From Nitrospirota bacterium (GTDB taxonomy: Bacteria > Nitrospirota > UBA9217), in assembly GCA_963755045.1 (NCBI GenBank), contig CAVWIL010000010.1:30059-94058 (forward strand): a stretch of DNA of 64,000 nt, read 5' to 3'. Within the stretch, counting starts at the first letter, position 1. Each line of letters begins with the position of its first letter. Positions 51,885-64,000 of this stretch are shown here, piece after piece. Made by a program: the position numbers and the translations under genes. Under the pieces are notes generated by a model. The model was not told the origin of the DNA. It was given only the letters and a program-made list of their open reading frames with translations, and ran no database searches.

Positions 51885-52070
51885 CTATATTTCCGTGACG
51901 GTAATTGCCTGCTGTGGGCAGTTCTCAACGCAGGTCAGGCAGTTGATGCACTCTGACATGTTTACCGGCTCGGACTTGCTGTCCTCGATCTTGAACACGC
52001 CCTGGGGGCATACGTTCACGCACGTGCCGTCGCCGTCGCACTTTTTTTTGTCCACGACTACCATGTACAT
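51885..52070 (-). CDS. Dicluster ferredoxin (copy 1)
   Basis: CDGDGTCVNVCP and CINCLTCVENCP. RBS AAGGAGG and its own TTGATT-17-TAATAT promoter (52150-52122). Confidence 0.93.
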   Translation of the reverse strand: MYMVVVDKKKCDGDGTCVNVCPQGVFKIEDSKSEPVNMSECINCLTCVENCPQQAITVTEI

Positions 52071-52213: not shown

Positions 52214-53386
52214 TTAATGCTCCAGCTCTATCCCCGCCGTTTCTTCCCTGACCGTGATCGCAATCTTGTAGAGCAGGGTCAGTACCAGGAACCCGATGGC
52301 CCAGATGCCGATGGTGATCATGGTCTCCGGCATGGTCGGCCAGTAGGGATGCACTTCCTCAAAGGGGTTCGGCACGAAACCGCCGATGATCAGGCCGAAA
52401 CCCTTGTCGATCCAGAGGGAGGCGAAGAGCATGATACACGCGAGCACCAGGGTCCCCTCGTTCTTCCGTATCGCCGGGACCCAGAGCATGACCAGCGAGA
52501 CCGCCGCAAAGATCGTCGAGACCCACATGAGCGGAACCAGCTCGCTATGACCTTCAAGACCGGTATACAGGTACAGGAAGGATTGCGCATGGCCCGGGAT
52601 GCCGCTGTAGAACGCGGTGAAGAATTCCAGTCCCAGGAAAAAGACATTCGCGAACATGGCATAGGCCACGATCCTGCCTACTGCCTGGATGGCCTCCTTG
52701 CCTGCATCGAACTTGCTGATCTTCCGAACGATCAGGGCAAGGATGATCAGGAGCGCCGGACCGCCGGCAAATGCCGAGGCCAGGAAGCGCGCTGCGAGGA
52801 TGGCGCTGAGCCAGAAATGACGCCCCGGGATACCGGCATACAGGAACGCCGTGACCGTGTGGATGCTGATCGCCCAGGGGATCGAGAGATAGATGAACGG
52901 TTTGATCCATTTTGGCGGGGCAATGCCCTTCTTGTCGGCGCTGAGGGTGACCCAGCCGACCAGGAGGTTTATAAACAGGTAACCGTTCAGCACGACCGTG
53001 TCCCAGAACACCATTGCCGACGGCGTGGGGTGCAGGAATATGTTCATGACCCTCATGGGCTGTCCCATATCCGACAGGATGAACAGCATGCACATGACCA
53101 CTGCCGAAATTGCAAGGAACTCACCGAGGATCACGATCTTAGCGAACGTTTTATAATCGTGCAGATAATGCGGGATCACGAGCATCACGGCCGAGGCCGC
53201 AACGCCGACCAGGAATGTGAACTGGCCGATATACAGGCCCCAGGTCACGTCCCGATGCATGCCGGTGAGTCCCAGTCCATACGAGAACTGATGGAGGTAG
53301 TTGAACACACCAACCGCGGCCAGGATACCGAGAAACGTGATCCATGCCCAATATTTTTTACTGCCCACTAATGCCTTTTCAAGCAT
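52214..53386 (-). CDS. dsrP: DsrP (NrfD family membrane subunit)
   Basis: TGMHRDVTWGLYIGQFTFLVGVAASAVM, SIPWAISIHTVTAFLY and WIDKG. Follows dsrO. Confidence 0.95.
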   Translation of the reverse strand: MLEKALVGSKKYWAWITFLGILAAVGVFNYLHQFSYGLGLTGMHRDVTWGLYIGQFTFLVGVAASAVMLVIPHYLHDYKTFAKIVILGEFLAISAVVMCMLFILSDMGQPMRVMNIFLHPTPSAMVFWDTVVLNGYLFINLLVGWVTLSADKKGIAPPKWIKPFIYLSIPWAISIHTVTAFLYAGIPGRHFWLSAILAARFLASAFAGGPALLIILALIVRKISKFDAGKEAIQAVGRIVAYAMFANVFFLGLEFFTAFYSGIPGHAQSFLYLYTGLEGHSELVPLMWVSTIFAAVSLVMLWVPAIRKNEGTLVLACIMLFASLWIDKGFGLIIGGFVPNPFEEVHPYWPTMPETMITIGIWAIGFLVLTLLYKIAITVREETAGIELEH

Positions 53387-54224
53387 GGTCGCTTCCTCCT
53401 ACGATATAATAAATGCCCGGGCCGGTACCCAGGTCGGATTTGCGCCGGATCGTATACTGGTTCTCCACGATCTTCCGGACCTCGGAGTTGGGGTCTTCCA
53501 GATCGCCAAAGAGCAGGCCGCCTTTCGGCGCTGCTTCAACACATGCCGGCAGTTTGCCCACGGCAAGCCGCTCGGTGCAGAAGGTGCATTTTTCCACCAC
53601 GCCTTTTCCCCGCTTCGGGTATTCCTTGTTCTCATTCTTGATGATCGGCGTGCCATTCGGATTATTGCCGAGGGGGTCTCTCCAATTGAAGCTTCGCGCA
53701 CCGTAGGGACACGCGGCCATGCAGAACCGGCATCCGATACAGCGGTGCTCGTCCTGCATGGTGATGCCGTTCGCGTATTTGAATGTTGCCTTCGTGGGAC
53801 AGACCCGGACACAAGGCGGGTTATCACAGTGGTTGCACGCGACGATGAACGGCATATCCTTGATATGTTCGCTCATGTATTTGTTTTCCTGGCCCGGGAA
53901 AGCTCGTTCGTAGGGCGCTGTCCATATCCATTTGATCTCGAATTTCTTGTCAACGCTGCCGTCCGCGTTCCGGTAGTCGGGAACATTGTGCGTCGAATGG
54001 CAGGCATCGATGATCTTCTTCACATCATCCTCGGTCTTGAACTTGCTCATATCCACGACCATGGCCCAGCGCTTCGCAAGCAACGCCTCCTTGTTCTTGT
54101 CCACTTCTTCAGGCCCCAGACCTTTTACCCAGAGGTTATGGGTGGCCGAAGCAGCTGTTGCGCCGAGGCCCAGAATGGAGGAGATGCCGGCTATTTTGAG
54201 GAATTTTCTCCTATCCATGCTCAT
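53379..54224 (-). CDS. dsrO: DsrO Tat-exported FeS protein
   Basis: MDRRKFLK Tat signal, RWAMVVD, CNHCDNPPCVRVCP, CIGCRFCMAACPY and KCTFC. Confidence 0.95.
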   Translation of the reverse strand: MSMDRRKFLKIAGISSILGLGATAASATHNLWVKGLGPEEVDKNKEALLAKRWAMVVDMSKFKTEDDVKKIIDACHSTHNVPDYRNADGSVDKKFEIKWIWTAPYERAFPGQENKYMSEHIKDMPFIVACNHCDNPPCVRVCPTKATFKYANGITMQDEHRCIGCRFCMAACPYGARSFNWRDPLGNNPNGTPIIKNENKEYPKRGKGVVEKCTFCTERLAVGKLPACVEAAPKGGLLFGDLEDPNSEVRKIVENQYTIRRKSDLGTGPGIYYIVGGSDHA

Positions 54225-54649
54225 GATTTGTTCTCCTCCTTCTCCTTCGGCGGAATATGGCAGTCCCAGCAATACGGGGTCACTGACATGTAGGTATGGC
54301 ATTCATCGCAGAACTTCTTCTTGTTGGAGTGGCAGTTCATACAGCTGTTCTGCAGGCTCATATTGAACCGTTTGTGGCTCGTGTCGCTGATGTAGCCCCG
54401 GTTGTCCTGACGCACCACCGCGTCCCGCCAGTTGTTCAGGAGCTGCATGTGTTCAGCCCGCATGAATTCTTTGGACTCCACACACTCCTTTTTGCCGTAC
54501 TGTTTTTCCCATTCCTGGATCGCGGGAGTATCAAATTTAGGTTCGGGCTTGGCATTGACCCTCCCGATATTGTAATAGAACGGAAATGCCGCGATCGCCG
54601 CGAACACCAGGATCCCGATGAATATTTTGCCGACGTCATAGAGTTTCAT
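54221..54649 (-). CDS. dsrJ: DsrJ triheme cytochrome c
   Basis: CVESKEFMRAEH and three CxxCH motifs (CMNCH, CDECH, CWDCH). Confidence 0.95.
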   Translation of the reverse strand: MKLYDVGKIFIGILVFAAIAAFPFYYNIGRVNAKPEPKFDTPAIQEWEKQYGKKECVESKEFMRAEHMQLLNNWRDAVVRQDNRGYISDTSHKRFNMSLQNSCMNCHSNKKKFCDECHTYMSVTPYCWDCHIPPKEKEENKS

Positions 54650-56270
54650 TAGGCTTTTTCCTCCTTCGCTTCGACTCCCGGAAGAGGTTCACCGCGCAGG
54701 TTGGTCGTTCTCTCTTTCTCGCCCGTCATGATCATGGCATTTGCCACGAGCTCATGGAGACCGCAGACGCCCACGCCGGGCACCCAGTAATCCATGAGCG
54801 GGGGAAGCGTTGCGCGGTCGATGGCACAGATGCAGCCAAGCATGTTCACCCCGTAGTGATCGTGGACGAACTTGACGGCATTCGCGCGGGGCAAGCCGCC
54901 CTTCATGCGGAGGTCCATGTCCTCCGAGGCATTCAGACCGGATCCGCTGCCGCAGCAGAAGGTCTTCTCCCGGATCGTGTCCTCGGGCATTTCGACGAAG
55001 TTATTGACCACGTTCCTGAGAACATACCGGGGTTCATCAAGAATGCCCATACCGCGCGCCGTGTTACAGGAGTCGTGCCACGTCACCTTGAGGTTGTCGT
55101 TCCTCTTCGGGTCGAGCTTGAGCTTGTTGTTCTTGATCAGGTCGGCGGTAAATTCAGCGATATGGATCATCTTCGTCGAGCGTGCGTTCTCGAAGACCGT
55201 GCCGGTGATCGGCGACTTCGGGACCTCGAGGAAATCCGCAGGTCCGTTCCAGGTGTCCATATACTGGTTCAGGACGCGCCACATATGGCCGCATTCTCCG
55301 CCGATGACGTACTTCACGCCGAGCCGCTTCGCCTCGGCATAGATCTTCGAGTTGAGCCGTTTTGCCAGTTCGTTCGAGGTGAAGTACCCGAAGTTCCCGC
55401 CTTCCGAGGCATAGGTGCTCCAGGTATAGTCGAGCCCGAGCTCTTCGAACAGCATGAGGTAGCCCATGGCCGTGTACGTGCCCGGATCGGCAAAGAGGTC
55501 GCCCGACGGCGTCACGAACAGGATCTCGGCGCCTTTCCGGTTGAACGAAGGGTTTGATCTTTTTGCCCGTAATGGTCTCGATGTCGTCGAGCATATACTC
55601 CAGGTTGCCGACGATCGTATGGGGCTCGAGGCCGAGGTGGTTGCCCTTCATGTAGCAGTTCGCGGCAGGACCGGCGATCCATTCAATGTTCAGGCCGAGC
55701 AGGTTCAGCAGCTCGCGCCCGATGATGGTGATCTCGGCCTGGTCGATGCCGTAGGGGCAGAAGACCGAGCAGCGGCGGCACTCGCTGCACTGGAAGAAGT
55801 AGTACCACCACTCCTTCAGTACGTCGAGCGTAAGCTCGCGCGCGCCTGCCATCTTGCCGAACAGCTTGCCGGCCAGGGTGAATTCTTTTCTATAGACCGA
55901 ACGAATGAGCTCGGCCCTGAGCACCGGCATGTTCTTGGGGTCGCCGGTGCCGATGATAGAAGTGGCATTTGTCCGCGCAGGCGCCGCAGCGCACGCAGAT
56001 ATCCATGAAGAGCCTGAACGACCGGTACTTCTCAAGCCGCTCGGCGATCCCCTTCAGGAGGATCTCCTTCCAGTCCTCGGGCAGTTTCCAGTCCGCGTCC
56101 ATGGGTCTCCAGTCCCGCGGGTTCGGGAAGCTGAGGATCTCGAGGCTTTTCGGCTTCGCTCCATGGCAGAACATGCCCTCTTTGATCGCCACGGGCGTAT
56201 CCATCCACTCCGTCTTCGGCGGCGCAAAATCAATCTTCGACAGTTCTTCTGGCTTCGGAAGTTTTGCCAT
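54649..56270 (-). CDS. dsrK: DsrK (HdrD-like) catalytic subunit (frameshifted)
   Basis: CVRCGACADKC, CSECRRCSVFCPYGID, ECGHMWR, TWHDSCN, CCGSGSG and CAIDRA. Confidence 0.95.
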
Positions 56271-56272
56271 GA

Positions 56273-57269
56273 TTACTCCTTTTCTACCGGCAGGCCGGCT
56301 TTTTTCATTTTGTCCCTGAATTCGTCCTCATACTCCGCATAGGTGTGGACATGGACCGGATAGTTCCAGGGATTGATGTGCCTCTTCGCGCGGTTGTTGT
56401 TCGCCAGGTTGCGGGTGGGGCTCATGAAGACGCCGGCCATGTGGACCAGCTTGCTGAACGGGAAATAGGCGAACAGGATGCAGAGGAGGAACAGGTGGAT
56501 GTAGAACACGGAGCCTATGCCGGTGGCGGGGATCGCTGGACTGAAACTGACCAGCCCCATGGTGAGCATCTTCACGCTCACGATGTCTGTTTTAATGAAG
56601 TACCGCATGAGTACGCCGGACGTGGCAATCGCGAGGATCAGGAAGAGCGGGAAGTAGTCTCCGATCAGCGAGATATACCGCAATTGCGGAAGGGCCGACC
56701 CTCCTGATAAAGAGATAGGTAACCGCCGCCAGGAGCACGAGGTCGGTCAGGTATAAAAGCGGTGTTCCCACCTGGAGAAAGCTGTCGAGTGTCGAGATCG
56801 TCTGGATCGCCTCGGGCACCGGTATCATGAAGAACCGCAGGTGCCGGATGAGGATAACAAGAAAGGAATAATGGAACGCCATGCCCGCGAGCCAGAGCCA
56901 TTTTGCCTCACCGTAGGTGATCCGGGGACCGTCGTTCAACTGTGTTTTCAGGTTCCTGAAAAGGGACCGGAAGAAGAACACCTCAAGCGCCATTCTCCCG
57001 AGAACGCCCAGCGTGCCCGAGGGGTTTTCAAGCTTGCTGTGCTTGATCCAGGGGAGCGATTTCTGCTGTCCGCAGGTCGTGGGGATGCGGAACGGCACGG
57101 GCGAACTTCCCCATTTCAGGATACGGTAGATCATGCCGCCGATAAAGAGGAGGACCGCCAGATAGGGGATCACGATCCCGAAGACAGACTGCGCGTTCAA
57201 CACCGTCACTCCCGTGTAGGCAATCAGTACAAGGACCAGTACTGCGATGAAAGAAAATATGACTTTCAT
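56273..57269 (-). CDS. dsrM: DsrM (NarI-like diheme cytochrome b), frameshift near 56690
   Basis: PVPFRIPTTCGQQKSL, FFRSLFRN, FHYSF...RHLR, HLFL...YFPFSKLVHMAGVFMSPTRN. Confidence 0.95.
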
Positions 57270-57490: not shown

Positions 57491-58006
57491 CTAGTCCTGA
57501 TCGTCAACGATAATGCGCGCCTGCTGCAAAAGCCTGAACGTCACGTTGGTGGCTTCCTTCGCCTTGAGCTCGTAGATCTTTTCCCGGCACTTCATATATA
57601 TATCAAAAGCGAAGAGGGCCAGGTCATCGATGGTGGAATCAAAGGCCGCCAATTCATCGGTCATCCCGGGCTTGAGCAGGATCTCGCTGCCGAGTTCCTG
57701 CCGAACGATCTTCTTAAGCTGGAAGATAAACGCAAGGGCCTCGGACGGCGGAAACTCCTGGATCGCGCGGATCCTGATAATTCCGTCCAGAAAGGTCTTA
57801 ACGGTCTCAGGGATCATTCCCTGGAGCAACGCATCGAACAGTCCATCCAGTCCCTCTGCGAGCGTATAGCCGACCGGGTTCGTGAACTGGGCCTTTTGCT
57901 TCTTTAAAAAACCGGAGGTATTCTCCGGATAGGTGTCCGCAACCGCATCGAACCACTTTTTCAGGATCGCGGGCTTCTTTTCCATCAAATGTTTTTTAAG
58001 GCTCAT
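57491..58006 (-). CDS. dsrT: DsrT (RsbRD N-terminal domain protein)
   Basis: ILKKWFDAV..TYP, FTNPVG, RIRAIQEF.PSEAL.FIFQLK and FDIYMKCREKIY. Directly upstream of dsrM. Confidence 0.93.
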   Translation of the reverse strand: MSLKKHLMEKKPAILKKWFDAVADTYPENTSGFLKKQKAQFTNPVGYTLAEGLDGLFDALLQGMIPETVKTFLDGIIRIRAIQEFPPSEALAFIFQLKKIVRQELGSEILLKPGMTDELAAFDSTIDDLALFAFDIYMKCREKIYELKAKEATNVTFRLLQQARIIVDDQD

Positions 58007-58011
58007 TATTT

Positions 58012-58105
58012 ACTCTCCCTCCCCTTCAAGGGGAGGGCCGGGGTGGGGATGGGTTAAAACCGGCGCTTGGACCCATCCCCCACCTAACCTCCCCCTTGAA
58101 GGGCG
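58012..58105. repeat. CCCTTCAAGGG-type long palindromic element
   Basis: CCCTTCAAGGGAGG..GGTGGGGATGGGT ... ACCCATCCCCCACC..CCTCCCCCTTGAAGGG, between dsrF and dsrT. Confidence 0.75.
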
Positions 58106-58117
58106 AGAAATTATTGT

Positions 58118-58534
58118 TTAGAAGAACAGCAGGTGCTTCACCGCTTCCATTTCCTTCTGAATATCCGCGAAAGAAACGAATTTGGTGGTCAGATCCGCGC
58201 CGCCGATATCTTCTGCATCGGTGATGATCTGGTCCTCTTTCAGGCCGAGACGCTCCATGTCCTCCTTGCAGATCCAGATCGGCACATCGACCTGCAGGGA
58301 ACTTTTGATGTGACTTTCGGTGCTGGTCACGCCGTAGATCTTCATGGCCTGTTGGCCCTTCACCATGTTCAGGACGCCATCTCCCACGAACACCACGGTC
58401 GGAACGACCGAATCGCCGTCATCCATATAGATCTCAGCGGTTTGGCTGGCGATCGCATGGGTGAGTGCAAGACGGGGGTTTTCACTCTTGTAGGGAGGTC
58501 TTTGAACAACAAACAATAATTTTACGGCACCCAT
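58118..58534 (-). CDS. dsrF: DsrF/TusC-like protein
   Basis: FVVQRPPY, VFVGDGVLNMVKGQ and ICKEDMERLGL. Confidence 0.75.
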   Translation of the reverse strand: MGAVKLLFVVQRPPYKSENPRLALTHAIASQTAEIYMDDGDSVVPTVVFVGDGVLNMVKGQQAMKIYGVTSTESHIKSSLQVDVPIWICKEDMERLGLKEDQIITDAEDIGGADLTTKFVSFADIQKEMEAVKHLLFF

Positions 58535-58894
58535 TTACTCACCTCCAATGTGAAGCAGCTTGTCGGTTTTGACCGTCTTGGCCAAATACCAATCCATGCT
58601 GGCCCGTTTCATGCCTTCGGGCACGTCTTCCTTGTGATATCCCCGTGCCTCGGCACAGGCTTCGCAGACAGTGACCTCCATACCCTTGCCCATCAGCTCT
58701 TTCATAAGCTTCTCATTGTGCGAGTAGTCCTTAAACGCTTTTTGCCCCTTTTTGGCCATCATGACGGCGTTGCCGGAAAGCCACATGTTCACTTTGTGTC
58801 CTTTGGCGATCGCAGCCTCGGCGAGCTTGAAGGAAAAATCAAGCGACATCGAGCCGACCAGAGAGGGGAACACTCCCAAGGTAAATTCTCCCAT
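58535..58894 (-). CDS. dsrE: DsrE/TusD-like sulfurtransferase
   Basis: KLAEAAIAKGHKV and VCEACAEARG (Cys at the DsrE persulfide position, as CxxC), ending TDKLLHIG. Confidence 0.8.
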   Translation of the reverse strand: MGEFTLGVFPSLVGSMSLDFSFKLAEAAIAKGHKVNMWLSGNAVMMAKKGQKAFKDYSHNEKLMKELMGKGMEVTVCEACAEARGYHKEDVPEGMKRASMDWYLAKTVKTDKLLHIGGE

Positions 58895-58918
58895 TGTATC
58901 CTCCTTATTTATTTTCTG

Positions 58919-59020
58919 ATGGACGAATGGACGATCACGTTCGCTTGCGCTCACTCGGACGAATGCGTACTCGATCATCGTCTCTCGTCCATCGTCTTTC
59001 GCATTCGTTCCCTCGTTCTT
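58919..59020. repeat. GGACGA/TCGTCC heptamer palindromic element
   Basis: ATGGACG AATGGACG AT ... ATCGTCT CTCGTCC ATCGTCT, between dsrH and dsrE. Confidence 0.65.
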
Positions 59021-59025
59021 TTACG

Positions 59026-59325
59026 CTACAGCCACGCCGTCTTCTCGAAATCGTTCATAACGAGATCGACAATGTCTCCATAACCGATCACCTTGACCTT
59101 GGCATTGACATTGGCAGCGGTATAGCCCCGTGTCAAGAGGTCATCGGACAGCACGTAAAAGCTGGCGCCCGATTTTGCCAGAACCGGCGAATCCTTGCCG
59201 TTCTCTTTTACGACCGCATGATAGACGCCGTTGCCGACGAGGATGACCCCCATTTTGTCGGCTTTCAATCGTTCAAAGCTGTCTTCGGTCCTTCTCCAGT
59301 CACTTAGGAACACGGCTAACTTCAT
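59026..59325 (-). CDS. dsrH: DsrH/TusB-like protein
   Basis: VILVGNGVYHA, FYVLSDDLLTRG and IGYGDIVDLV. Confidence 0.8.
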   Translation of the reverse strand: MKLAVFLSDWRRTEDSFERLKADKMGVILVGNGVYHAVVKENGKDSPVLAKSGASFYVLSDDLLTRGYTAANVNAKVKVIGYGDIVDLVMNDFEKTAWL

Positions 59326-59363
59326 CGTATCACCTCCCTGAGACATAGTGAAAATAAAAAAAC

Positions 59364-59390
59364 AGGGGATAAGTTTTTCAATTATCCCCT
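59364..59390 (-). terminator. Terminator after ferredoxin copy 2
   Basis: AGGGGATAA / TTATCCCCT stem followed by a long U-tract on the minus strand. Confidence 0.7.
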
Positions 59391-59415: not shown

Positions 59416-59601
59416 TTAGATCTCGGTAACCGTAATCGCCTGCTGCGGGCAGTTCTCCACGCAGGTCAGGCAGCTTATGCACTCGGACATATTTGCCGGA
59501 TCAGATTTTCCACCATCAAGTTTGAACACCGACTGCGGACAGACATTCACGCAGGCGCCGTCGCCGTCGCACTTGTTGGTATCGATTGTTACCATATACA
59601 T
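59416..59601 (-). CDS. Dicluster ferredoxin (copy 2)
   Basis: CDGDGACVNVCP and CISCLTCVENCP. RBS AAGGAGG. Confidence 0.93.
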   Translation of the reverse strand: MYMVTIDTNKCDGDGACVNVCPQSVFKLDGGKSDPANMSECISCLTCVENCPQQAITVTEI

Positions 59602-59782: not shown

Positions 59783-60118
59783 TTAAACGCAGCCTGTCGG
59801 CTTCGGCAGACCGGCGATCTTGCAAGCCTGCTTTGCCGGGCCGCCCGGATACAGCTCATAGAGATACTTGGTGTTGCCCTTGTCAGCCCCAAGCTTCTTG
59901 CCGATCTCCTTGACAAGGATCTTGATCATGGGCGCGATCTGATACTGCTTGTAGTATTCGCGGAGAAAATTCACGACTTCCCAGTGCTGATCGCTCATTT
60001 CGATACCCTCGACCTGAGCAAAGTAATTTGCCACATCCATATTCCAGTCATCCAGGTTCGCCAAAAATCCATCTTCATCCACTTCGATCGTCTTTCCTTT
60101 TACGTCAACTGTTGCCAT
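59783..60118 (-). CDS. dsrC: DsrC sulfur-carrier co-substrate
   Basis: VDEDGFL, HWEVVNFLREYY and YPGGPAKQACKIAGLPKPTGCV, with both C-terminal Cys (CX10C). Confidence 0.97.
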   Translation of the reverse strand: MATVDVKGKTIEVDEDGFLANLDDWNMDVANYFAQVEGIEMSDQHWEVVNFLREYYKQYQIAPMIKILVKEIGKKLGADKGNTKYLYELYPGGPAKQACKIAGLPKPTGCV

Positions 60119-60226: not shown

Positions 60227-60589
60227 TTATTGTTTCTTTTTTACCTTAAGAAAATACATACGGCCCTGCCGGTCCATGAAGCTCCTCGGCTCTCCTGTTG
60301 ACCGGTGTCTCCTCCAATCATAACTGAGGACCACATCATCGTAATCTTCCCCGGCAATCATGTCGGAGGCCTCTTTGGAAAGCTCCTGGCTGGCGAGACC
60401 AAGGGCCTGCAACATCACTTCCCCCACGTTCCTGCTCGTGGGATCGACAAGATACAACGCGCCGCATGAACTGCATTTGCCGCCGAGGACCCGCTCGATC
60501 GAGCTTATCGTGATCTCAGCCGGCCGCGCGATCCGGCTGCGGCAAAATGGACAGACCGGTTCGACACTTTCCCTTGCTTCTGTCCTCAA
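60227..60589 (-). CDS. Hypothetical 2xCxxC (Zn-ribbon-like) protein
   Basis: CPFC...RP...GGKCSSCGALYLVDPT.RNVGE...EDYDD..LSYD. RBS GGAGG. Lies between dsrN and dsrC. Confidence 0.75.
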   Translation of the reverse strand: MRTEARESVEPVCPFCRSRIARPAEITISSIERVLGGKCSSCGALYLVDPTSRNVGEVMLQALGLASQELSKEASDMIAGEDYDDVVLSYDWRRHRSTGEPRSFMDRQGRMYFLKVKKKQ

Positions 60590-60603: not shown

Positions 60604-62001
60604 CTACACTGCCTGCTTGCTTTTTCGGTATTCATGGGCCTTCTTAACAAGAGCAACAGACCACTCCGGCGTACCGAGCGCATGCAGATGCGTGTACGCG
60701 GCAAGCACGTTTTTATATACGATCCCGTCGCCTTTGCCGTCTATCCCGTGACCGCGGCTCATATGATACGCCATCGGTTGCCGCCTGTCACCGGTCATTG
60801 GACGGGAATAGTGGAACTCGTGGCCTTTTATTATAACACCGTTGTCAAGGAACGGACTTTCGATCCCGGCTTCCGCAACAGTATATCCATGCGCCTGCGG
60901 CCTTTTTTCGAGAACAAAATCGATCGGCAGGACCGACGTCATGGGATAGCTCTTTTCGTTGACCGTCAGACTCCTGCCGAGATAAATCAAGCCCCCGCAC
61001 TCGGCATAGATGGGAAGCCCGTCGTCTGCAGCGGCCTTGACCGATCTGCAGAAACGTTCGTTCGCTGCCAGTTCCGCGGCCTGTGTCTCGGGGAAGCCGC
61101 CGCCTATATACAGGGCGTCTATATCGGGGAGCTCGCTGTCGCGAAGCGCGTTGATCTCCCTGAGAGACGCCCCCTGCTCTTCGAGCGCTTCCAAATTATC
61201 AGGATAGTAGAACTGAAACGCGGTATCCCTGATAACTCCGATGCGCGGCCGTTGTATTTCTTCCGAAAACCGATTATGGGAAGCAACAGCTGCCGGGACG
61301 TCCAGTTCCGGCGCATTGCTGCCGATCTCCCATAACACCGAGAGGTCAAGATATTTTTCCACCGCTGCCGCTGCAGCGCTGATCGCCTGATCTACTTCAG
61401 GATGCTCATGGAACGGTGTAAGCCCCATGTGCCGTTCGGGGAATTCACCGTTCTTCTGCCGGGGCATTGCGCCGACGACCGGAATGCCGCTGCTCTGTTC
61501 TATGGCTTTCCTGATCACCGTCTCGTGCCTGCCGGGCGATACATTGTTCAGAATGATCCCGCTGATATTTACTTCGGGATCATATGTCCGGCATCCCAGT
61601 ACAACGGCCCCGATCGTGCTGGAGGCCTTGGTGCAATCCACGATGAGAAGGACAGGCGTCTTGAGCAGTTTTGCCAGTCGTGCCGTGCTGTAACGCCCGG
61701 ATTCGTCAATGCCGTCAAAGAGGCCCCGGTTGCCCTCGATCAATGCCGCATCCGCGCCGCCGGTATGCTGCTGAAACGAGCGAAGGATGCTCTCCCCCTC
61801 CATCATGAAGAGGTCGAGGTTGTAGCACGGCCTGTCTGCCGCCTTGCCAAGCCATCCTGCGTCAATAAAATCAGGGCCTTTTTTAAAAACCGCCACCTGC
61901 CTGCCCTGCCTGCGCCATGCAGCGGTGATGCCGATCGCGATGGTAGTCTTGCCCAGTCCCCCTCGTGTGGCTGAAACGACCAGCCTCGGGATATTCCGCA
62001 T
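60604..62001 (-). CDS. dsrN: DsrN siroheme amidase (cobyrinate a,c-diamide synthase family)
   Basis: GKTT, FKKGPDFID, IEGNRGLFDG, ERHMGL, FYYPDNLE, YAECGGL and HEFHYS, located in the dsr operon. Confidence 0.92.
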   Translation of the reverse strand: MRNIPRLVVSATRGGLGKTTIAIGITAAWRRQGRQVAVFKKGPDFIDAGWLGKAADRPCYNLDLFMMEGESILRSFQQHTGGADAALIEGNRGLFDGIDESGRYSTARLAKLLKTPVLLIVDCTKASSTIGAVVLGCRTYDPEVNISGIILNNVSPGRHETVIRKAIEQSSGIPVVGAMPRQKNGEFPERHMGLTPFHEHPEVDQAISAAAAAVEKYLDLSVLWEIGSNAPELDVPAAVASHNRFSEEIQRPRIGVIRDTAFQFYYPDNLEALEEQGASLREINALRDSELPDIDALYIGGGFPETQAAELAANERFCRSVKAAADDGLPIYAECGGLIYLGRSLTVNEKSYPMTSVLPIDFVLEKRPQAHGYTVAEAGIESPFLDNGVIIKGHEFHYSRPMTGDRRQPMAYHMSRGHGIDGKGDGIVYKNVLAAYTHLHALGTPEWSVALVKKAHEYRKSKQAV

Positions 62002-62008
62002 GATCGCG

Positions 62009-62251
62009 TTATGATTGAGGATTGGCCGAACCTTCCGTGTGCGGGATCTCGACGGCAGTGCCGCCGAAATACGAATACACAAGCTTGCCGCCGTCAATGA
62101 GCACACGAAGAGCGGCCTTTGTCTCGGCCTGGGTCGCGCCTTCAGCCTCCATGGCGTTGCTGATGTCCTTGGGCTTCAGCTTCTTTTTTCCCTGGCTCTT
62201 TTCCACCAATGCATATACTTTGTTTTGCAGTTCCTCGGCATCCATATTCAT
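62009..62251 (-). CDS. dsrD: DsrD
   Basis: About 80 aa directly after dsrB, with EKSQGKKKLKPKD and LVYSYFGG. Confidence 0.88.
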   Translation of the reverse strand: MNMDAEELQNKVYALVEKSQGKKKLKPKDISNAMEAEGATQAETKAALRVLIDGGKLVYSYFGGTAVEIPHTEGSANPQS

Positions 62252-62326: not shown

Positions 62327-63402
62327 CTATTCCCACTTGAAGGTCGGGGTCATTCTGAACGTATCCCGTGCAAAGGTGAAGTCATCGATGTGCTGATACG
62401 TGAACGGGATACCGGTCAACTTGAAGAACCGCTCCCAGCCGATGCGCTCGATCCACTCACCCACACGCTCGTGCAGGTGAGCATCCTTGGCGTAGACTTC
62501 CACGATGTGTTTCACCGCCTGCACGACTTCGGGCCAGCGCGGCGGGTTGTTCGGAAGGAACGGGATTGCCAGCTTGGACATGCGTGCAGGGCCGCGTGCG
62601 TTCGACACCTTACCGCCCACATAGATGGATATGCCGTCGCCGTGCGCATCCGCGAGCGGCAGTGAAGGACACATGGTGTAGCAGTTGCCGCAGTACATGC
62701 AGCGCTCTTCCTTGATCTTCACGGACTTCAGCAGCAGGGTTCGGGGCGATTGCGCCGGTCGGACAGGAGGCAATGGTCGTGGGGATCTCGCACTGATTCC
62801 CGATTGTCGCCTCGTTGACCTTCGGCGGCTTGCGGTGAATGCCGAGGATGGAGATGTCGGAGCAGTGCACCGCTCCGCACATATTCAGGCAGCAGGCAAG
62901 CGCGACCCTTACTCTCGCCGGAAGCGTCTTCGTGGTGAAATACTCGTGCAGCTCGTCCATCACGGCCTTCACGACACCCGAGGCGTCGGTGGCCGGCGTG
63001 TGGCAGTGGACCCAGCCCTGGGTGTGCACCACGTTGCTGATGCCGTAGCCGATGCCGCCGACCAGATGGCCGCGTTTCTTGAGCTCGGCCTGGAGAGGCT
63101 CTAGCTGTGCTTTGTCGGGAAAGAACTCGACGTTGTTCCGCGTGGTGAAACGCAGATATCCGCCGCAGATATTTCTCGGCGATGTCGCACACTTCGCGGA
63201 TAAAATCGGTGCTCACCAGGCGGGGTGATGCCATACGCACGGTATAGAGCTCGTCGCCGGTCTCGGAGACGTGCTTCATCGCACCCTTATTGATCACTTC
63301 ATGGTACTTCCATTTCCCGTAGTTCTTTGTCATCACGGGAGGCAAAAATTTGCTATAGTGAGGAGCTCCAATATCGGTTATTCTCTTCGGTTTGTCAGCC
63401 AT
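62327..63402 (-). CDS. dsrB: Dissimilatory sulfite reductase beta subunit (frameshifted)
   Basis: [54 protein letters not shown] and [12 protein letters not shown]. Confidence 0.97.
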
Positions 63403-63422
63403 TCTAAGTTATCCTCCTTAAG

Positions 63423-64000
63423 TTATTTCACGTCTTCCGCGGACCAGAATACGTACGGGTTCGACCTGGGGGCTTTCACCATCTGCGCCACGGGCGGCAG
63501 ACCGGTTGATTCAAGCATGGATCTCATGCCAAGACGATCGACAAGTTCGCCGATACGCTCGCGGTTCTTTCCGTGCTCATCCCACCACTCCCACAGCTTG
63601 CGGATGAGGTCTTCCAGGTTATCATAGGGTTTTTCGAGCTTCATGAAGGGGACGATGACCCAGCTCATGAGAGCGCCGGTCACGATCGGGGCCTTGCCGC
63701 CGAGCATGATGGTCGCGCCTTTTTCCTTGCCGGGACGCAGCGCCTTCGGCATGCGGTTGATGCAGCTCATGCAGCGGTTGCAATCCTTGCCCTCTATCTT
63801 GAGCGCCGAGCCGTCAAAGCTCATGCACTTGGTCGGACACGCATCAATGACCTCTTTCTGGATGTTCATTTCCGAGGCATACTTCTTCACCTCTGCCGCA
63901 TCGATCCGGATGGAGTCTCTCCAGGTGCCGATGATGGACATGTCGGCGCGGGCGATCGCGGCGACGCAGTCGTTGGCGCAGCCGGCAACCTTGATCTTGA
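63423..64000 (-). CDS. dsrA: Dissimilatory sulfite reductase alpha subunit (partial, 5' part outside window)
   Basis: KIKVAGCANDCVAAIARADMS.IGTWRD, CPTKCM, CNRCMSCINRMP and RERIGE. Confidence 0.97.
   Translation of the reverse strand, partial: KIKVAGCANDCVAAIARADMSIIGTWRDSIRIDAAEVKKYASEMNIQKEVIDACPTKCMSFDGSALKIEGKDCNRCMSCINRMPKALRPGKEKGATIMLGGKAPIVTGALMSWVIVPFMKLEKPYDNLEDLIRKLWEWWDEHGKNRERIGELVDRLGMRSMLESTGLPPVAQMVKAPRSNPYVFWSAEDVK

Follow-up and report, generated by a model that had tools for sequence, protein, structure and literature searches.

Whether an organism reduces or oxidises sulfur in its dissimilatory metabolism is routinely judged by marker genes, with dsrD taken as a sign of reduction and dsrEFH as a sign of oxidation. 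Here we describe a 64,000-nt stretch of DNA from an uncultured Nitrospirota bacterium (assembly GCA_963755045.1, contig CAVWIL010000010.1, positions 30,059 to 94,058; hereafter the window), in which genes for DsrH-, DsrE- and DsrF-like proteins, in that order (H-E-F), are embedded in a dsr operon. A single co-directional dsr cluster on the minus strand occupies the final 12 kb of the window, running dsrA (partial), dsrB, a DsrD-like gene, dsrN, a zinc-ribbon gene, dsrC, a ferredoxin gene, H-E-F, dsrT, dsrMKJOP and a second ferredoxin gene. Judged from its sequences, the trio appears to be a third type of DsrEFH-like module, apart from type I, as in Allochromatium vinosum, and from type II, which is linked to YeeE/YTD. 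The three genes are:

59026-59325, minus strand: H-like gene (DsrH/TusB-like subunit), 99 aa, conserved start MKLAV, cysteine-free; Pfam DsrH 6.6e-11
58535-58891, minus strand: E-like gene (DsrE/YchN-like subunit), 119 aa, with Cys77 and Cys80; Pfam DsrE 6.8e-14
58118-58534, minus strand: F-like gene (DsrF/TusC-like subunit), 138 aa, single invariant Cys89; Pfam DsrE/F 9e-11, TIGR03010 2.1e-9 (below cut-off)

A previous interpretation made from the letters of this DNA alone (the sequence-only reading) had placed the trio between dsrC-ferredoxin and dsrT-MKJOP, named its members H, E and F, and assigned E to a different subfamily by its CxxC. The open reading frames (ORFs) bear out the order, the exact coordinates and the position, Pfam matches and family profiles run against the Protein Data Bank (PDB) agree with the subunit names, and the motif and the NCBIfam scores given below uphold the separate subfamily. 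The E gene starts at a conserved MGEFT behind AGGAGGA, the longer ORF that reaches 58978 showing no conservation; E and F join at TAAATG, and a Shine-Dalgarno sequence precedes each of the three genes. All three proteins scored below the cut-offs of TIGR03010-03012, with E reaching 21.8 bits against 89.25 (TIGR03012), F 37.3 against 94.15 (TIGR03010) and H 44.9 against 49.2 (TIGR03011), and below those of the TusBCD equivalog models PRK13510, PRK00207 and PRK00211 (33.7 versus 104, 17.3 versus 92 and 32.4 versus 79 bits, respectively). Searches of PDB sequences with phmmer and a single F or E sequence gave nothing useful, and profiles built from 15-17 orthologues of each subunit were required. 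The sequences are ~115 aa long and less than 25% identical across the DsrE superfamily, and profile scores served to place the trio within it. With these, H matched A. vinosum DsrH (3.3e-9) ahead of TusB (3e-6) and TM0979 (1e-5), F had A. vinosum DsrF as its sole match (0.018), and E matched YchN (2.4e-9) ahead of DsrE (2.7e-4) and TusD (0.13). An AlphaFold2 model of E (predicted local distance difference test, pLDDT, 84) gave template modelling (TM) scores of 0.84 to YchN and 0.83 to both DsrE and TusD. These comparisons support the trio as a distinct subfamily, probably orthologous neither to oxidiser DsrEFH nor to TusBCD.

The motif CxxCxxxRG was found in 118 of 119 full-length E homologues, the window form being VCEACAEARG, and C77, E78, C80, R84 and G85 were invariant among 17 aligned orthologues. 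E-Cys77 aligned to the sulfur-binding Cys78 of DsrE (2hy5_A), which lies in the A. vinosum context VVCVAAAQRRG, and E-Cys80 was located in the first turn of the following helix in the AlphaFold2 model. F-Cys89 (I-C-K-E-D), invariant in 15 orthologues, occupies a position held by Asp in DsrF, whereas the equivalent of DsrH Cys20 is Phe in H, and no conserved cysteine was found among 16 H orthologues. Ratios of nonsynonymous to synonymous substitution (dN/dS) against members of the window's family, with synonymous sites near saturation, were 0.03 for E, 0.05 for F, 0.07 for H, 0.04 for DsrC and 0.12 for DsrT; the trio genes are under strong purifying selection, comparable to DsrC. A decaying remnant was considered and ruled out, as H, E and F are intact and have dN/dS of 0.03-0.07.

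The H-E-F order was constant in about 80 loci. Within the window's family, 61 loci showed dsrABD-N-Zn-C-fdx-H-E-F-T-MKJOP-fdx invariantly wherever the contig allowed, and none of them had tusA within the dsr/H-E-F locus. Other families were sampled with 20 loci from 19 Nitrospirota genomes, of which 19 retained H-E-F intact and in order, the twentieth being a lone second E copy in one genome. In 15 of these 19 loci, F is followed by a gene for a TusA that bears the CPxP motif (Pfam 4e-21), and the unit abutted dsrP-ferredoxin, in either orientation, in 7, Dissulfurispiraceae contigs being alike; yeeE adjoined H-E-F in none of the loci read. When 1.84 billion representative proteins were searched, only a handful of clusters were closer than ~39% identity, and a locus search based on E by itself yielded close relatives only (83-96% identity). 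More distant homologues, 39-45% identical, were encoded as H-E-F-DsrM-DsrK-thioredoxin on two archaeal-type contigs (L089 and L091), one of which had archaeal flagellin genes, and another contig (L090) held a compact distant cluster of H-E-F-TusA-DsrK-DsrM-DsrC-DsrA-DsrB. On L089, H-E-F lies downstream of homocysteine-biosynthesis genes (HcyBio and NIL-ferredoxin).

The distribution of the trio was assessed in 301 Nitrospirota genomes, taking E-value <1e-25 as the threshold for an E orthologue. DsrA was present in 157 genomes and E in 118; the two occurred together in 113, leaving 5 with E only and 44 with DsrA only. The 5 E-only genomes stand among 144 that lack DsrA; three are incomplete members of the window's family, and the two good ones, with no DsrA match, contain full-length DsrC. 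Operon fixation, the TusA-containing operon beside dsrMKJOP, the DsrMK and DsrC-DsrAB clusters of distant lineages and the near-confinement to genomes with DsrA or DsrC together support a tie between the trio and the Dsr system, as far as comparative genomics can indicate. The interpretation given by the sequence-only reading is thus supported in part: the separate subfamily and the link to Dsr are borne out, the latter through the 61 of 61 family loci in the operon, the distribution and the distant clusters, and the sulfur relay to or from DsrC, with the disproportionation, reversibility or use of zero-valent sulfur that it might allow, is putative. Grouping with TusBCD and a trio usually unlinked to dsr were both looked for, and neither was found.

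The trio shares features with each of the known systems. Like DsrEFH type I of A. vinosum (PDB 2HY5), for which transfer to DsrC is established (Stockdreher 2012, via PMC13293266), it has three side-by-side genes of the DsrE/F/H folds linked to dsrC, and H and F find their best solved-structure matches there. By contrast, type I, an alpha2-beta2-gamma2 hexamer that persulfidates DsrC, has the order E-F-H beside oxidative-type dsrAB, with dsrL, and has CxAAAxRRG in place of the CxxCxxxRG of E, which is closer to YchN; H lacks a counterpart of the type I DsrH cysteine and F has a conserved cysteine, and instead of an oxidiser gene set the host of the trio carries sat-aprBA-qmoABC and dsrT along with a DsrD-like gene. 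TusBCD of Escherichia coli (PDB 2D1P) likewise consists of three proteins of these same folds with a TusA partner, and its acceptor TusE belongs to the DsrC family. However, its gene order is tusD-C-B, the matches of H, F and E to TusB, TusC and TusD are poorer than those to DsrH, DsrF and DsrE, and the distribution of H-E-F tracks Dsr, not tRNA thiolation. YchN of E. coli (PDB 1JX7), presumably a stand-alone homo-oligomer of unknown function, is the best match of E in both sequence and structure and shares C-x-x-C-x-x-x-R-G, whereas the E genes in the loci read are flanked by H and F, the lone second copy excepted.

Given these features, we favour, with confidence a little better than even, a reading in which H-E-F would be a heteromeric DsrEFH-like carrier of the Dsr pathway in Thermodesulfovibrionia-type Nitrospirota, exchanging persulfide sulfur between TusA and DsrC through E-Cys77. 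Complex formation, the partnership with TusA and DsrC and the direction of transfer are what we infer from the observed folds, conservation, linkage and co-occurrence. Sulfane sulfur carried by TusA would be taken up as a persulfide on E-Cys77, the equivalent of DsrE Cys78, and then exchanged with DsrC, the product of which would be handled by DsrAB and DsrMKJOP. E-Cys80, at the N-terminus of the following helix, would probably act as a resolving or redox partner, F would contribute its conserved Cys89, and H would be purely structural. In the window's family, the module and a copy of the ferredoxin gene would have become part of the dsr operon, behind an attenuator hairpin that is conserved, with the tusA of the module relocated beside the type II/YeeE cluster.

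A reading that deserves weighing first is that the trio has already been described. The name 'DsrEFH type II' was given to the DsrE-like, Chp1 and Chp2 proteins of YTD clusters (Plum-Jensen et al. 2026, PMC13293266; see also PMC13047784). That paper reports that sulfur passes in vitro from TusA onto Cys67 and then to DsrC, proposes a role in transfer from TusA through E to DsrC, and states that type II co-occurs with reductive DsrAB in 985 genomes and that DsrEFH-like complexes commonly accompany reductive DsrAB. Its hidden Markov models (HMMs) were BLAST-seeded from cable-bacterium proteins, each of the three subunits having to reach 80 bits, and the sole named Nitrospirota culture, Dissulfurispira thermophila, is listed there as 'YeeE-DsrEFH type II', without TusA (PMC13293266). 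Elsewhere, papers on metagenome-assembled genomes (MAGs) mention the trio genes in passing, without analysis: 'dsrABCHEF' is listed in one magnetotactic member of the Nitrospirota (PMC9376291), most Thermodesulfovibrionia are said to 'possess dsrFH, but no dsrE' (PMC11033732), and such genes are not counted as DsrEFH in the survey of Diao et al. 2023. The co-occurrence of dsrD and dsrEFH, treated as a paradox by the sequence-only reading, is an outdated puzzle, with DsrEFH-like complexes commonly found alongside reductive DsrAB (PMC13293266) and trio genes listed in MAG papers, and has largely been resolved by the 2026 literature.

The two modules can be compared directly in a complete genome (G013), the E of which is ~80% identical to proteins that NCBI names Dissulfurispiraceae. 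This genome carries H-E-F-TusA beside dsr and, separately, DsrE (100 aa, single Cys)-Chp1 (91 aa)-Chp2 (55 aa)-YeeE, a cluster located through PF04143 that, by gene content, corresponds to the 'YeeE-DsrEFH type II' arrangement listed for Dissulfurispira thermophila, a culture that presumably has both modules. Two other loci were tried as the YTD cluster of G013 and rejected, L093 being a trio with a selenocysteine-containing DsrE (Sec-DsrE) and L094 a YedE/YedF selenium region. The YeeE gene of the type II cluster (L101 7480-8571) has two in-frame TGA codons at conserved cysteine positions (GRYUMNSAFRD and GGUTVG) and probably encodes a selenocysteine YeeE. Between window-type E and the type II E of G013, identity was 21% (27.7 bits); F and H had no detectable similarity to type II F (Chp1) and H (Chp2) of G013, which have no Pfam match, and reciprocal searches of the 301 genomes with H-E-F and type II gave no cross-matching. 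A type II-like E was present in 113 of the 301 genomes, with both kinds in 100, H-E-F only in 18 and type II only in 13. Because both occupy distinct loci in G013, occur together in 100 genomes and have little or no sequence similarity, H-E-F and type II are predicted to be separate coexisting modules.

It is therefore unlikely, though worth retaining as an alternative, that the trio falls within published type II as its Nitrospirota-rich 'subtype 1', the one most similar to type I. In that paper, subtype 1 is 57% Nitrospirota, type II is linked to tusA, and archaeal members occur with dsrMK (PMC13293266), the last of which matches the archaeal H-E-F-DsrMK loci; type II also resembles the trio in its company of reductive-type Dsr genes (DsrA is present in 113 of 118 trio-bearing genomes) and in an H without a Cys20 equivalent. 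By contrast, the type II E has ~100 aa, a single Cys and no RG motif, and its genes run E-F-H beside yeeE, whereas H-E-F adjoins dsrMKJOP or dsrC in the loci read. Moreover, the listing of 'YeeE-DsrEFH type II' without TusA describes the DsrE-Chp1-Chp2-YeeE cluster of G013 rather than its H-E-F-TusA, and against the G013 proteins E reached 27.7 bits, with no match for F and H.

The position of tusA connects the two modules. An orthologue of the module's TusA was found in 31 of 41 genomes of the window's family, at 65-76% identity, and in the two family genomes that were read (G005 and G095; L105 and L106) it adjoins type II E and YeeE, not H-E-F; outside the family (L062-L081) it adjoins H-E-F. 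In G005, a gene for a periplasmic rhodanese comes after type II E, with no obvious Chp1 and Chp2 genes in that place. The PF04143 matches of the window's source genome lie on a contig other than that of the window. Each genome thus appears to have a single TusA of this kind, located at one of the two modules; most simply, this TusA would serve both H-E-F and type II.

The CxxC of E admits another function, which we regard as rather improbable: E may be a redox-active dithiol/disulfide (or trisulfide) carrier that acts as a direct substrate or helper of the DsrMK heterodisulfide reductase rather than as a simple persulfide donor, be it as a second DsrC-like partner or as a factor resolving DsrC-bound sulfur to sulfide. 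In line with such a function, the CxxC is invariant with its second cysteine in the first turn of the helix, the distant homologues directly precede DsrM-DsrK-thioredoxin with no DsrC in view, and the trio lies immediately upstream of dsrT-MK in the window's family. A paralogous trio of Nitrospirota bears selenocysteine at the same site. It is encoded in a second operon (L082-L086 and L093) of ArsR, DsrE with an in-frame TGA, F, H, an SQR (sulfide:quinone oxidoreductase)-like flavoprotein and an RND/MMPL-like transporter; its E reads U-x-x-C-x-x-x-R-G at the CxxC site and its H and F are 32% and 21% identical to those of the window, whereas it differs in the order E-F-H, the selenocysteine active-site residue and the absence of dsr neighbours. 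Gene callers truncate this Sec-DsrE gene at the TGA. The evidence for a redox carrier consists of position and motif, however; proteins of the YchN type that share this CxxC are widely distributed in settings without Dsr, the TusA linkage of most families fits a persulfide relay equally well, and DsrC may sit outside the short archaeal contigs. A tentative and, in our estimate, unlikely elaboration joins these elements: H-E-F would work alongside type II with one TusA feeding both, type II handling imported sulfur while Cys77-x-x-Cys80 of H-E-F loads or unloads DsrC at DsrMK in a redox-coupled manner, for example as a disulfide or trisulfide reduced by the catalytic cluster of DsrK.

Several observations weigh against the persulfide relay from TusA to DsrC that we favour. 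The source genome, although only 86% complete, yielded no TusA closely orthologous to that of the module (33% identity at best). Of the 19 intact loci in other families, 11 have no adjoining dsr genes, their neighbours being, for example, uvrB and lysS. The co-occurrence of E with DsrA (Fisher p 9e-39, uncorrected for phylogeny) is inflated by shared ancestry, and about 44 DsrA-bearing genomes have no trio, including several whole families and 10 of 11 members of one small-genome genus; Dsr function as such therefore does not require the trio. E appears closer in sequence to YchN than to any proven sulfur carrier. In addition, a Thermoplasmata-like TusA-DsrE2-H-E-F operon (L108 and L109), the E of which is 35% identical to that of the window and also has CxxC, lies directly upstream of the gene for archaeosine tRNA-guanine transglycosylase (ArcTGT), and because these archaeal trios adjoin a tRNA-modification gene they hint at an older biosynthetic lineage or origin of H-E-F.

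A trio that acts as a biosynthetic relay of the TusBCD kind, for tRNA 2-thiouridine or another thio-cofactor, and is merely situated near dsr genes would accommodate the ArcTGT operon and the housekeeping neighbours, the JGI label of E as 'tRNA 2-thiouridine synthesizing protein D' and the MnmA encoded in the source genome (C2:42323-43375), but this reading is very improbable in view of the scores of H, E and F below the TusBCD equivalog cut-offs, the better matches of H and F to DsrH and DsrF than to TusB and TusC, the presence of the trio in only 5 of 144 DsrA-less genomes, its place inside the dsr operon at every family locus and with DsrMK or DsrC-DsrAB in distant lineages, and an mnmA that is unlinked to it.

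The remaining features of the cluster are:

62327-64000, minus strand: dsrB and the 3' part of dsrA (ORFs; DsrA TIGR02064 1.3e-168 at C10:93487-94632)
62009-62245, minus strand: DsrD-like winged-helix protein, 78 aa (conserved start; AlphaFold2 pLDDT 86)
60604-62001, minus strand: dsrN (ORF, sequence and synteny)
60227-60589, minus strand: 120-aa zinc-ribbon-like protein with 2xCxxC, in the dsrN-dsrC interval (ORF; weak Pfam zf-ChsH2 match)
59783-60118, minus strand: dsrC, with both C-terminal cysteines (ACKIAGLPKPTGCV; Pfam DsrC 1.2e-47, TIGR03342 6.8e-49)
59416-59601, minus strand: ferredoxin, 61 aa, 2x[4Fe-4S]-type (Pfam Fer4)
59351-59389, minus strand: terminator- or attenuator-like hairpin, GGGGATAA..TTATCCCC, with a T7 run, in the ferredoxin-H interval
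58012-58110, minus strand: GC-rich near-perfect palindrome of 90 nt, like a repetitive extragenic palindromic (REP) element, in the F-dsrT interval (-65.8 kcal/mol, z -5.9)
57491-58006, minus strand: dsrT (Pfam RsbRD_N 3.8e-21; conserved position)
52214-57269, minus strand: dsrM, dsrK, dsrJ, dsrO and dsrP (ORFs and synteny)

The product of dsrN, which we name from knowledge of its family, is presumably a cobyrinate a,c-diamide synthase-like siroheme amidase. The zinc-ribbon-like protein has counterparts of 27-39% identity that are encoded at the same position in other families of Nitrospirota. All 42 distinct intergenic regions between the ferredoxin gene and H in the family have the hairpin and T-run, with some compensatory changes in the stem, and folded as a 93-nt segment the hairpin was unexceptional (z -0.3). 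This conservation of hairpin and T7 run in all 42 regions suggests that dsrC-ferredoxin transcription is terminated or attenuated ahead of H-E-F-dsrTMKJOP. The palindrome between F and dsrT was absent from the corresponding site in 60 related loci, and its arms recur at at least 12 sites of the source genome, including the qmoB-qmoC interval; it looks like a genome-specific dispersed element of the REP kind. The ferredoxin at 59416-59601 is a paralogue of the one after dsrP (51885-52070), and in other Nitrospirota families a ferredoxin gene lies between dsrP and H-E-F, in some as a co-directional dsrP-ferredoxin-H-E-F-TusA. These twin ferredoxins, together with that order in other families, suggest that a ferredoxin-H-E-F block may have been copied or moved into the dsr operon of the window's family.

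Single-base frame shifts interrupt dsrB (62327-63402; near 63170 and 62740) as well as dsrM (56273-57269) and dsrK (54649-56270), the latter two near 56690, 55957 and 55546, and qmoB (C5:221415-223641) is split into 161 and 571 aa. The extra bases in dsrB, dsrM and dsrK are absent in relatives; they were mapped by blastn against relatives at ~80% DNA identity, a noisy comparison in which only indels recurring in two relatives were used. All four frame-shifted genes probably reflect long-read assembly errors rather than pseudogenes, and such errors may lower the completeness estimate of the genome.

The source genome comprises 2.96 Mb in 25 contigs, and homologues carry the names Nitrospirota, Thermodesulfovibrionales, Dissulfurispiraceae and Ca. 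Magnetoovum. The genes sat, apr and qmo, which the sequence-only reading had left to be sought outside the window, are present on contig C5 as adk-sat-aprB-aprA-qmoABC with a proton pyrophosphatase gene; sat-aprBA-qmoABC and dsr make up the standard sulfate-reduction gene set. From this gene set and from PMC11033732 we take the Dsr type to be reductive. The marker of reductive metabolism named by the sequence-only reading is here a DsrD-like gene: its position between dsrB and dsrN, its size and its fold agree with dsrD, while the ORF matched neither Pfam DsrD (PF08679) nor the solved DsrD by sequence. Foldseek placed Z-alpha first for its model and DsrD (1wq2) at rank 39 (TM 0.63/0.74), among many winged-helix proteins, and the 78-aa gene is thus best called DsrD-like by position, size and predicted winged-helix fold only. 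At C6:141906-142277 the genome encodes another DsrC-like protein, one that lacks the C-terminal cysteines. Elsewhere the genome has two clusters of TusA, DsrE2-like and DsrE-like genes and a TusA gene beside ThiF/MoeB-like and JAMM genes (C1:160649-161804, C2:45223-47570 and C13:53494-55238 for these loci jointly), and the sulfur-trafficking repertoire beyond the dsr locus appears, by annotation, to be rich.

What seems new is the trio embedded in the dsr operon as a putative third, uncharacterised type. It is present in roughly 40% of the sampled Nitrospirota species, where its annotation is inconsistent (tusD, 'dsrFH without dsrE' or 'dsrHEF') and where it has served as evidence of sulfur oxidation. 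If the trio proves to belong to subtype 1 of type II, the finding would be ordinary. If it is a third type apart from I and II, genome-based calls for a lineage widespread in soil, aquifers and sediment would need revision, and the role of a CxxC-bearing DsrE with TusA, DsrC and DsrMK would become a tractable biochemical question. Should E be a disulfide or trisulfide carrier reduced by DsrMK, it would constitute a second 'bacterial heterodisulfide' in the Dsr pathway, and as a redox carrier alongside type II it would let these sulfate reducers switch from reduction to disproportionation or oxidation and back.

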